Below, piece by piece: positions 26,105 to 28,176 of a stretch of 64,000 nucleotides of DNA. The position numbers and the translations under genes were made by a program. The DNA is from a virus (lineage: Duplodnaviria > Heunggongvirae > Uroviricota > Caudoviricetes). Under the pieces are notes generated by a model, which saw only the letters and a list, made by a program, of their open reading frames with translations, had not been told where the DNA came from and did not search any database. The first letter of the stretch is position 1. Each line of letters starts with the position of its first letter. The stretch is from IMG/VR virus record IMGVR_UViG_2541047938_000006; one strand, given 5' to 3'.

Positions 26105-28176
26105 TCAGTATGCGCGCTGGAACAGCCCGATGCTTTCATTATCATTTGTCGACGTAATTTCATTACACACCATCCATGAGCCCGGAACTGAGGATAGTAT
26201 GCCGTCAATGCCATCGGTGTTAGCTTTCATATAGTTTCCGTTTTCGTCTTTGATTAGGGCGCATCGCTTAAGGCGTGAACCCGATACAGTTTCTCCTGGC
26301 TGATAGGTTCTGCCGATGTCGGTTATATACGGGCCTAGTGCGGCAATAATGTATGTTCCGATGCTGTAAATTTCCCCGGGTACCAGCCTTCCGGTTGGCC
26401 CTTGTGGTCCCTGTGGTCCGGGTTCACCTGTCGGGCCCTGTGGACCTGTCGGGCCCTGTCTTCCTGTTTCTCCCTGCAAACCTCGTGGCCCCGTTTTACC
26501 CGCAGGACCTGCCGGACCAACCGGCCCCGGAACACCCTGTGCCCCCGCTGGTCCCCTTTCACCTCGTGGCCCTGCCGGGCCTGCATCACCTTTGGGACCA
26601 GCTGCACCAGCCGGTCCCTGTGGGCCTGCGGGCCCCACTGCTCCCGCAGGTCCTGTCGCCCCCTGCAGCCCACGGAGGCCCTGCTCACCTTTCTGTCCTG
26701 CAGGCCCCTGAGGTCCGGGTTCACCGCGCTCACCTTTCGGACCTGTGGGACCTGCCGGTCCTTGCTCGCCCCTGTCACCTTTCGGTCCAGGTATGCTTTC
26801 TCCCGACGGGCGGGTTGTCGCAACCTCTTCTGCCTTCTGTTTCGCTGCCCTGGCCTCATCCATTGCCGCCTTCACAGCTTTCGGTGTGGCTGCCTTCGTT
26901 TCATCATCACTGTCCGTTGCGCTGCTTAACTGCACAATTCCCTTCTGTGCCGTCGTCGCATCTGCCACATTTGCTGCGCTGCCCGCCGGGCCTGGCTCCC
27001 CACGAGGTCCCTGAGGTCCGGCTTCGCCTCGTTCACCTTTCGGACCTGCCGGACCCGGTTCACCTCTCTCTCCGGCGGGGCCCTGTAATCCTTGCGGACC
27101 ACGTTCCCCGGGTTCCCCTTTCGGCCCCGCAGGTCCGGTCTCACCGCGCTCTCCCTTTGCTCCTGCCGGCCCCGGCTCACCTCTCGGACCAGCATCCCCC
27201 TTTGGTCCCTGAGGCCCCCCGGGTCTCCTTTTTCGCCTCTGGCCCCGGTTTCACCACGCGGCCCCATTGCTCCCTGTGGCCCGATCGCACCACGTGGGCC
27301 AGATGGCCCTGTTGCGCCAGCTGGCCCCTGCACTCCCTGAGGTCCCCGTTCTCCTGTATCACCTTTCTGGCCCGGTATGCCCTGAGGTCCGCGCTCTCCC
27401 TGCTCACCTTTCTCCCCACGCGGACCCGCCGGACCTGTTTCACCACGAGGACCAGCATCACCTTTCGGCCCTGTATCGCCTTTAGGTCCTCGTGCATTCT
27501 CAGCCATACGTCTGGCTTCTTCAGCACTAACCGTAGCAGCCTCAGCACGTTTAAGAACGTCTCCGGCGGCCTCCTGAGCCACTCTGGCGGTTTCAGCATG
27601 TTGTCTGGCCTCTTTCGCGTCTGCTGCCGCTGCCTTTTCAGACTCACCTGCCCGGGTCGCCGCCTCTGCAGCCTCACTGGCTTTTTGTGCAGACTCCGTC
27701 GCTTTGCTTGTCGCAGCCTTCGCGCTTTCTGATGCAGTCTTCGCACTGGCAGCAGCGCTTTCCTTCGACTGTGAAGCCTGATTATTTTTCACCGCCGTGT
27801 CTTCGTTCAGACGACGAATCGTGGCAAGGTCATCCGCCACATTGTTCTGTATCTGCCGGAAATCTGTCAGCAGTTCTCCGGGTATGCTCACCTCAACAAG
27901 ACTACGCCGTAACAGCATATTGAGCGTCACCGTACTTTCAGTCCCCTCAATACGCACACGTCCGTAGACAGCAGTCTTCCCTTTCACCGTCACAGAAACC
28001 GCATACTCCCCCGGCTCCAGCGTCATTCCGTAATACCCGCCGTCACGAGTCACTGCTGACGCACTGGTGCCGCTGAGCGCATCCGGTGAAACTGTCAGCG
28101 CCGTCAGGGTAATATTTGCGCCTGATATCGCCTCACCATCAGGAGATTTCAGCGTCCCCGAAACAACAACACTCAC
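26105..28176 (-). pseudogene. Side tail fibre (Stf-like) with collagen-like Gly-X-Y repeats, split by a frameshift
   Basis: N-part ORF 26926..28176 has Stf-like N-terminus, Ala-rich coiled coil and GPxG repeats that leave frame at a G6 run (coding strand) at 27225-27233; downstream frame 26105..26968 continues collagen repeats into motif [29 protein letters not shown]. Confidence 0.6.

Follow-up and report, generated by a model that had tools for sequence, protein, structure and literature searches.

The window analysed here is the whole stretch of 64,000 nucleotides (nt) of a Caudoviricetes virus record of IMG/VR (IMGVR_UViG_2541047938_000006), and the element under study is a lateral tail-fibre gene encoded on its minus strand. 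Two open reading frames (ORFs) of this strand, 26926..28176 (416 amino acids, aa) and 26105..26968 (287 aa), have 43 nt in common; both are present as described in an earlier sequence-only reading of the window. They are the two parts of one gene, whose frame is lost at a run of six Gs (G6). The features of the gene are given below.

26105..28176, minus strand: whole lateral tail-fibre pseudogene, EPcl-type, collagen-like; 690 aa with one G restored; intact orthologues are annotated 'tail fiber protein'.
26926..28176, minus strand: N-part ORF, 416 aa; attachment domain, coiled coil, 30 collagen triplets and 96 out-of-frame codons.
26105..26968, minus strand: C-part ORF; first start, GTG at 26968; 276 aa from GTG at 26935 in public assemblies.
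27215..27220, minus strand: G6 homopolymer (C6 on the plus strand), site of the -1 frameshift; one G short of the G7 of relatives.
27284, minus strand: private substitution, C>T, changing ACC to ATC (Thr>Ile) 64 nt on the 5' side of the tract; marks the G6 haplotype.
27877..28176, minus strand: N-terminal domain, approximately residues 1-100; CarboxypepD_reg-like, with a weak phage_tail_N (PfN) match.
27490..27876, minus strand: Ala/Ser/Glu-rich low-complexity region, approximately residues 101-229, corresponding to the trimeric coiled-coil 'PCoil' of EPcl proteins (PMC3368898).
26975..27489, minus strand: first collagen domain; 31 + 26 Gly-X-Y triplets split by the conserved GDPGGPQG interruption.
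26831..26956, minus strand: phage tail fibre repeat 2 (Pf2, PF03406), E=3.2e-18, residues 408-449 of the repaired protein.
26384..26788, minus strand: second collagen domain, 45 Gly-X-Y triplets.
26108..26383, minus strand: C-terminal globular tip, 92 aa, no Pfam match.

The coding strand through the tract reads GGC GAA AAA GGA GAC CCG GGG GGC CTC AGG GAC (CCGGGGGGCC at plus-strand coordinates 27213-27222). On the 5' side of the run, ORF 26926..28176 consists of continuous Gly-X-Y triplets; on its 3' side, the zero frame of this ORF consists of 96 Arg-rich nonsense codons. Adding one G to the run gives a 690-aa protein without internal stop, which goes on through 26 further Gly-X-Y triplets, the Phage_fiber_2 motif, 45 triplets and a 92-aa C-terminal domain. 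The sequence-only reading had claimed that the Gly-X-Y register is lost at the run and that the repaired frame reaches this motif and the C-terminal domain, and the repaired protein agrees with it on both counts. The interval that it gave for the break (27200-27250) contains the run, but the position quoted for the run itself (27225-27233) misses it by about 10 nt. The frame is lost at codon 321 of the fibre gene, exactly at the GDPGGPQG interruption of the first collagen domain, and the true coding frame of the C-part continues from the G tract. No Shine-Dalgarno sequence is visible upstream of the start of the C-part ORF. The frame break is real, lies in a real gene and is not due to chance.

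The repaired protein has the composition of a collagen-like fibre. The collagen family (PF01391) matches it at E=2.5e-48 in five stretches, with runs of 31, 26 and 45 triplets, and the Phage_fiber_2 motif, which begins KGIVQLSS, sits between the two collagen domains. CarboxypepD_reg (PF13620) passes at 35.7 bits, and PF08400 (PfN) is found at E=3.9e-4 and 20.9 bits, under its 26.6-bit cut-off; PfN has been reported to resemble a carboxypeptidase regulatory domain (PMC3368898). The N-terminal part of the gene is matched by GER2 (Oslovirus), phi24B, AU5Stx1 and many Stx2a phages, and that of phi24B gp61 anchors the fibre to the tail (bioRxiv 10.64898/2026.04.10.717836). In the 92-aa tip, no match to PF06820 (PfC) was found in Pfam at E<=0.01; the query region spanning the tip also matches the phages PhiR12_3 and PhiR5_2. 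GDPGGPQG is found at residue 317 of the repaired protein and likewise in four relatives, and GDPGGPAG or GDPGGPPG in the fibres of phi24B, AU5Stx1, TL-2011c and an O104:H4 phage. A conserved G-X-P-G-G-P-X-G interruption is known in EPcl collagen (PMC3368898). The natural G7 sequence itself staggers Gly-X-Y by one residue (GDP-G-GPQ). Removal of two Gs, which gives a perfect Gly-X-Y register, was rejected as the ancestral state because the extra Gly is kept in all lineages (PMC3368898).

In relatives, the tract reads GGA GAC CCG GGG GGG CCT CAG GGA (G-D-P-G-G-P-Q-G). The first four relatives fetched (UCPROB-002, 2015C-3121, JNEC-KY173 and phage GER2) have G7 and one 'tail fiber protein' coding sequence (CDS) each, of 644-690 aa. 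With an 81-nt query, all 18 complete Escherichia coli genomes found have G7 (27 places; the best place per genome aligns over 82 nt), and none of the 18 contains an exact match to the G6 query. G7 is also found in all the other sequences sharing the context: 3/3 phages (including the induced phages PhiR12_3 and PhiR5_2), 9/9 IMG/VR contigs and 16/16 metagenome contigs, the search pattern used for the IMG/VR and metagenome contigs permitting G4 to G11. Thirty-one fetched loci (25 pattern hits included) were confirmed as G7 by regular expression. A scan of a genome-contig collection with one genome per species gave no match. That one tail-fibre gene is broken at a G homopolymer and mended by one G, as had been proposed, is borne out by G7 in 46 or more relatives.

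The survey was able to detect tolerated homopolymer variation, since the positive control, an A6/A7 run with which the neighbouring DUF4376 gene begins, varies in the same relatives (6 vs 5 loci). That G7 does not vary is taken as a sign of purifying selection on the frame of the fibre gene. In sister lineages, the same Gly-Gly is spelled differently: CCG GGA GGT CCT, without a run, in phi24B, AU5Stx1 and TL-2011c; CCG GGG GGA CCA, with an in-frame G6, in the O104:H4 Stx2a phage. No indel was found in the in-frame G6 of the O104:H4 lineage (0/27 genomes). The sister lineages do not conserve the homopolymer.

No other G6-type split protein was found in a collection of 15 billion proteins. The 96-aa out-of-frame tail has a sole close match, P0001, among 5.8 billion protein clusters. 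P0001 was rejected as a frameshifted fibre: its reading frame is already the alternative one on the 5' side of the tract (…AKKETWGGLRDQ…), and it is therefore considered to be an alternative-frame ORF of a G7 allele.

The G6 tract is not private to one assembly. The window is 100% identical to scaffold KE702357.1 of GCA_000461255.1, and the same G6, together with T at 27284, is found in GCA_002538945.1 (NMGO01000029.1, another project) and in the Logan re-assembly of run SRR3987722. Over 13,461 bases, a single one (position 27974) distinguishes these contigs from the window. In both of them, gene callers also split the gene into 416 + 276 aa; the 416-aa gene call is common to GCA_002538945.1 (L036), Logan SRR3987722 (L037) and L038. 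Exact-protein look-ups found the 416-aa N-part, the 276-aa C-part and the Eib-like neighbour of the fibre gene on only a handful of contigs. A listing of cluster members had given the 416-aa and 276-aa products, which start with GTG, as absent; as both are found on contigs, this negative carries no weight.

Both G6 genomes have the substitution at 27284, which is found in none of the 31 relatives fetched and in none of 5426 complete E. coli genomes. Its origin by gene conversion from a paralogous fibre or by mis-polishing was considered and discarded, the variant being in no complete E. coli genome. Over the repaired first 1073 nt, the gene has two differences from that of UCPROB-002 (WP_147692397.1, 690 aa), namely the missing G and 27284 C>T; likewise, one gut metagenome contig has only those two differences over this length. 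UCPROB-002 aligns to the window with approximately 99% identity over 28 kb. SCU-104, the nearest complete genome, carries the same ynfF-adjacent prophage, with flanks 100% identical to the window. Alignment of approximately 50 kb with SCU-104 and UCPROB-002 shows no uncompensated coding indel disrupting a window gene other than the tract, and the other late genes of the window are all full length; the window is therefore not a homopolymer-error-prone assembly. The frameshift is considered real and inherited because it is found in a second isolate and with a second assembly pipeline, on a marked haplotype. It has been inherited vertically in at least two isolates. More generally, public re-assemblies of raw reads can tell a real frameshift from an assembly error without the reads themselves.

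The change at 27284 creates a GATC site. That at 27974 (C/T, Thr67Ile, inside the fibre pseudogene) is the sole difference between the two G6 genomes over 13.4 kb. Both are C>T, Thr>Ile changes in the fibre gene and could reflect relaxed constraint after the frameshift, two sites being too few to test this.

A second lesion is found in the same prophage.

41935..44494, plus strand: IS21-family element; IstA, 42128-43669 (rve and Mu-transposase C domains); IstB, 43681-44430.

This insertion splits a SASA/NanS-p-like esterase gene into two halves on the minus strand, 44488-45399 and 40838-41947, one with DUF1737+SASA and the other with DUF6645. Both G6 genomes encode the IS-truncated 303-aa esterase product, as does a Logan contig from SRR958752. 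The insertion is absent from SCU-104 and UCPROB-002. The homologous esterase of phi24B is a capsid decoration protein (bioRxiv 10.64898/2026.04.10.717836). As the fibre frameshift and the disrupted esterase gene are common to both G6 genomes, the prophage of this clade carries at least two inherited lesions. Such lesions are usual in prophage decay; the prophage is considered to be decaying and the fibre gene to be a pseudogene.

The explanation retained, with a probability of about 0.85, is a vertically inherited -1 slippage mutation that pseudogenised the fibre gene in a decaying Sepvirinae-like prophage. The functional form would be G7, with CCG GGG GGG CCT encoding the Pro-Gly-Gly-Pro of the conserved one-residue collagen interruption. 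One G would have been lost in the lineage of the window, most likely by replication slippage on the C3G7C2 sequence. The product would now be a 416-aa protein in which a nonsense tail of 96 residues follows the attachment domain, the coiled coil and 30 collagen triplets; the distal collagen would be missing, as would the Pf2 motif and the receptor-binding tip. It may still trimerise by its coiled coil and dock on the tail; PfN-PCoil fragments are known to form trimers (Ghosh et al., PMC3368898). The mutation would have been fixed and passed vertically in a small clade, along with the private single-nucleotide polymorphism and the IS21 insertion in the esterase gene. By analogy with Sp5, in which deletion of the orthologous tail fibre gene, ORF67/ECs1228, leads to no plaques and no lysogens (PMC5155283), any particles made are predicted to be non-infectious.

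Several points weigh against this explanation. It is derived from assemblies, so minority G7 molecules may exist. The firm independent isolates are two, as SRR3987722 may be the read set of GCA_002538945.1. Non-infectivity is predicted from a homologue whose C-terminal tip differs. A cryo-electron microscopy preprint questions the lateral fibre as terminal receptor binder in phi24B, and the truncated fibre stub could therefore keep some structural role. The prophage is seen only to window position 64000, and its early region lies beyond.

The sequence-only reading had proposed phase variation, a homopolymer error or a translational -1 frameshift; a fixed inherited mutation was not among its proposals. 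Phase variation, i.e. a contingency locus in which a hypermutable G run switches the fibre on and off as in the receptor-binding proteins of Campylobacter Fletchervirus, is highly improbable. The lesion does lie within the G7 run of a host-recognition gene, and slippage is the probable origin of the mutation; moreover, runs of at least 6 bases show measurable reversible slippage in T2/T4 (PMC12633550), and tracts of 7 to 11 Gs are cited in the same source for Fletchervirus receptor-binding proteins. However, no length variant was found in the 46 or more relatives with a pattern open to G4-G11, the in-frame G6 of the O104:H4 lineage is constant (27/27 genomes) and both members of the G6 clade remain G6. 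The same Gly-Gly is encoded without a homopolymer in other lineages, so the tract is not a conserved device; the collection of 15 billion proteins contains no second G6-type split protein, and such repeats are depleted in tail-fibre genes (PMC12633550). Slipped-strand mispairing is thus kept as the probable cause of the mutation, and no switching is seen between genomes, with G7 in relatives, G6 in both clade members and the absence of the run in sisters.

It is also very unlikely that the G run is a switch that reverses at low frequency, or that ribosomes now and then get past it by slipping -1 on C_CCG_GGG, with G6 lysogens releasing a minority of particles with full-length fibre. If this were true, the locus would be a bet-hedging state of a temperate Stx-like phage and not a dead gene.

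A homopolymer sequencing or assembly error, the true sequence being G7 and the gene intact, is highly improbable. It was the leading idea at an early stage, after G7 had been found in every relative, and was dropped once the split gene was found in the second genome and in the Logan re-assembly. G/C homopolymers are classic error sites, the G6 was judged from assemblies, and SCU-104 itself has a C7-vs-C6 discrepancy that breaks a DUF1627 gene (window 52640-52645). Against an error, the same G6 is carried by GCA_002538945.1, a genome of another project, and by Logan SRR3987722, which was re-assembled independently from raw reads; it is linked to the private substitution at 27284, which marks a distinct haplotype. 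Metagenome contigs of relatives, built from short reads (Illumina-style), have G7 in this very context, and a systematic G7-to-G6 miscall is therefore unlikely. Among homopolymers of at least 6 bases in sequence aligned to close relatives, the only other length differences are a compensated T6/T7 at the DUF4376 start and the C6/C7 at 52640, where the window has the intact copy.

Recoding, in which the ribosome slips -1 on C_CCG_GGG or RNA polymerase stutters so that some full-length fibre is still made, is the least credible of the readings, since the homologues all have one continuous ORF, hence no selection for recoding, the site is not conserved and the 107-nt downstream fold is ordinary (z=-1.40; 16/200 shuffles fold as well). 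The heptamer does fit X_XXY_YYZ in the zero frame, a -1 slip on it would recreate the wild-type DPGGPQG exactly (as derived from the sequence), and programmed frameshifts are known from phage tail genes. However, only some 2 nt separate the upstream AGGAG from the slippery site, a spacing that goes with +1 and not -1 stimulation; in E. coli, shifting on G-rich heptamers is poor, and transcriptional slippage is efficient only on longer A/T runs. Recoding would be at most an incidental low-level leakiness.

The frameshifted gene of the decaying prophage was compared with known systems. It resembles EPcl proteins (PMC3368898) in the succession of an N-domain (here with a sub-threshold PfN match), a coiled coil, collagen, Pf2, a second collagen and a C-terminal tip. 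Unlike that of EPclA/EPclB, the tip of the window gene gives no PF06820 (PfC) match, and the gene resembles the EPclC*/D class with alternative tips. 'Defective, frame-loss, two-ORF' copies of EPcl genes are listed in O157 defective prophages (Z3309/Z3307, ECs2159/ECs2158; PMC3368898); their frame loss is 'between domains', whereas that of the window lies exactly on the interruption codons.

The lateral fibres of short-tailed Stx phages (Sp5 ORF67/ECs1228, 933W L0121 and phi24B gp61 (tsps)) are encoded at the same place, behind the SU10-type adaptor, and the module likewise includes an N4-gp56-type capsid and a giant protein. The six lateral fibres of phi24B are gp61 trimers and have a long collagen-like shaft (bioRxiv 10.64898/2026.04.10.717836). 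The N-terminal approximately 1.4 kb of the genes of Sp5, 933W and phi24B have 88-90% DNA identity to the window gene. Unlike the window gene, they have GGA GGT without homopolymer and a PfC-type tip and are intact; the window gene has another tip, is followed by DUF4376 and Eib-like YadA adhesin genes and is frameshifted. The tract shares with the polyG loci of Fletchervirus and the putative contingency loci of T2/T4 (PMC12633550) a host-recognition gene in which ±1 slippage switches the frame, here on a G homopolymer. Those loci are heterogeneous within and between populations and revert at high frequency, whereas the tract is uniform in relatives, fixed as G6 in the mutant clade and not conserved in sisters. 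With -1 frameshifting of the lambda G/GT type, the window has in common a formal X_XXY_YYZ heptamer, a tail-related gene and a longer product on a -1 shift. In the lambda type, however, the site is conserved and two ORFs are the norm; in the family of the window, one ORF is the norm and two ORFs are a rare derived allele.

Two other irregular arrangements were observed in this fibre family. The TL-2011c fibre (L034, 1575-3685) is annotated as two CDSs, of 121 aa and 582 aa; its N-terminal domain appears to restart in another frame, possibly by a duplication or an insertion. If so, this would be another non-canonical or broken fibre of the family. In 933W-type phages, a small PfC-domain ORF, 'alternate tail fiber tip', is read in another frame over the 3' end of the fibre gene (phi24B, L032, 3394-3783; AU5Stx1, L033, 3352-3741). 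No frameshift signal was found for this overlapping ORF, which has been proposed to be a reservoir sequence for variation (Mondal et al., PMC5155283).

The lesion is of a kind already tabulated for the EPcl-type family of Sepvirinae lateral fibres and is an ordinary event. What is new is limited to the place of the break, on the codons of the Pro-Gly-Gly-Pro interruption, which are a G7 run in lineages using GGG; in such lineages, this interruption is a C3G7C2 slippage hazard. There is little consequence beyond annotation: two ORFs become one frameshifted tail-fibre pseudogene, and the prophage is to be scored as defective on account of the fibre frameshift and of the IS21-disrupted esterase gene. 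The invariant G7, compared with the varying A6/A7 next door, suggests that fibre genes are still under purifying selection; most such prophages are therefore probably active phages.

The fibre gene is followed downstream by two genes.

25507..26094, minus strand: DUF4376 gene, intact.
23683..25143: Eib-like YadA adhesin gene.

The DUF4376 product is probably a partner or an assembly protein of the fibre. At the start of its gene (window 26079-26094, minus strand), A6/A7 and a one-base polymorphism, ATGA(A)CATG, give three haplotypes (6, 4 and 1 loci), each in frame through its own start (MNMNVEK…, MWKK…, MNVEK…). Other neighbours of the fibre are the SU10-type adaptor (28173..28823; PF24175, E=8.8e-32), the N4-gp56-type major capsid protein (30329..31543), the portal, the terminase and a giant protein of 2792 aa encoded at 6108..14486. 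The genes stand in the expected order: the N4-gp56-type capsid comes first and is followed by several small genes, by the SU10-type adaptor and the fibre, and then by tail genes and a giant protein of approximately 2790 aa. From its gene content, the locus is assigned to the late module of a short-tailed Stx-like (Sepvirinae-type) prophage beside ynfF in E. coli.

In RefSeq, SCU-104 has a truncated 4Fe-4S protein directly after ynfF. The integration site of the prophage appears, from these sequences, to be the next gene of the ynf operon. The cargo at the ynfF end (window 1-6100) includes a PAPS reductase and IbrB-like pair, an Ant antirepressor and a Panacea-domain protein.

The C-terminal half of the fibre gene and the DUF4376 and Eib-like adhesin genes (window 24003-27111) form one cassette. 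This cassette is unlike the SCU-104 version and matches a prophage of UCPROB-002 (L005) that is not its ynfF-adjacent one; the left edge of the similarity with SCU-104 lies within the collagen repeats, about 105 nt from the tract. Judging from these matches, the host-recognition module looks as if it were exchanged mosaically. A recombination junction was considered as the cause of the frameshift and found to be unlinked to it: UCPROB-002 is colinear across the whole gene, and the similarity with SCU-104 ends approximately 105 nt away.

Two further differences from SCU-104 were observed. At window 52640-52645, the DUF1627 gene (52294..53064, minus strand) has C6 and is intact (256 aa); the SCU-104 prophage, otherwise nearly identical, has C7 at this site and a frameshift flag in RefSeq, which is either an error or a real mutation. 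Close relatives thus differ by ±1 in a second G/C run. At window 17945-17985, three 1-nt indels and 17 substitutions are clustered between hok/gef and lom, where there is no annotated CDS.

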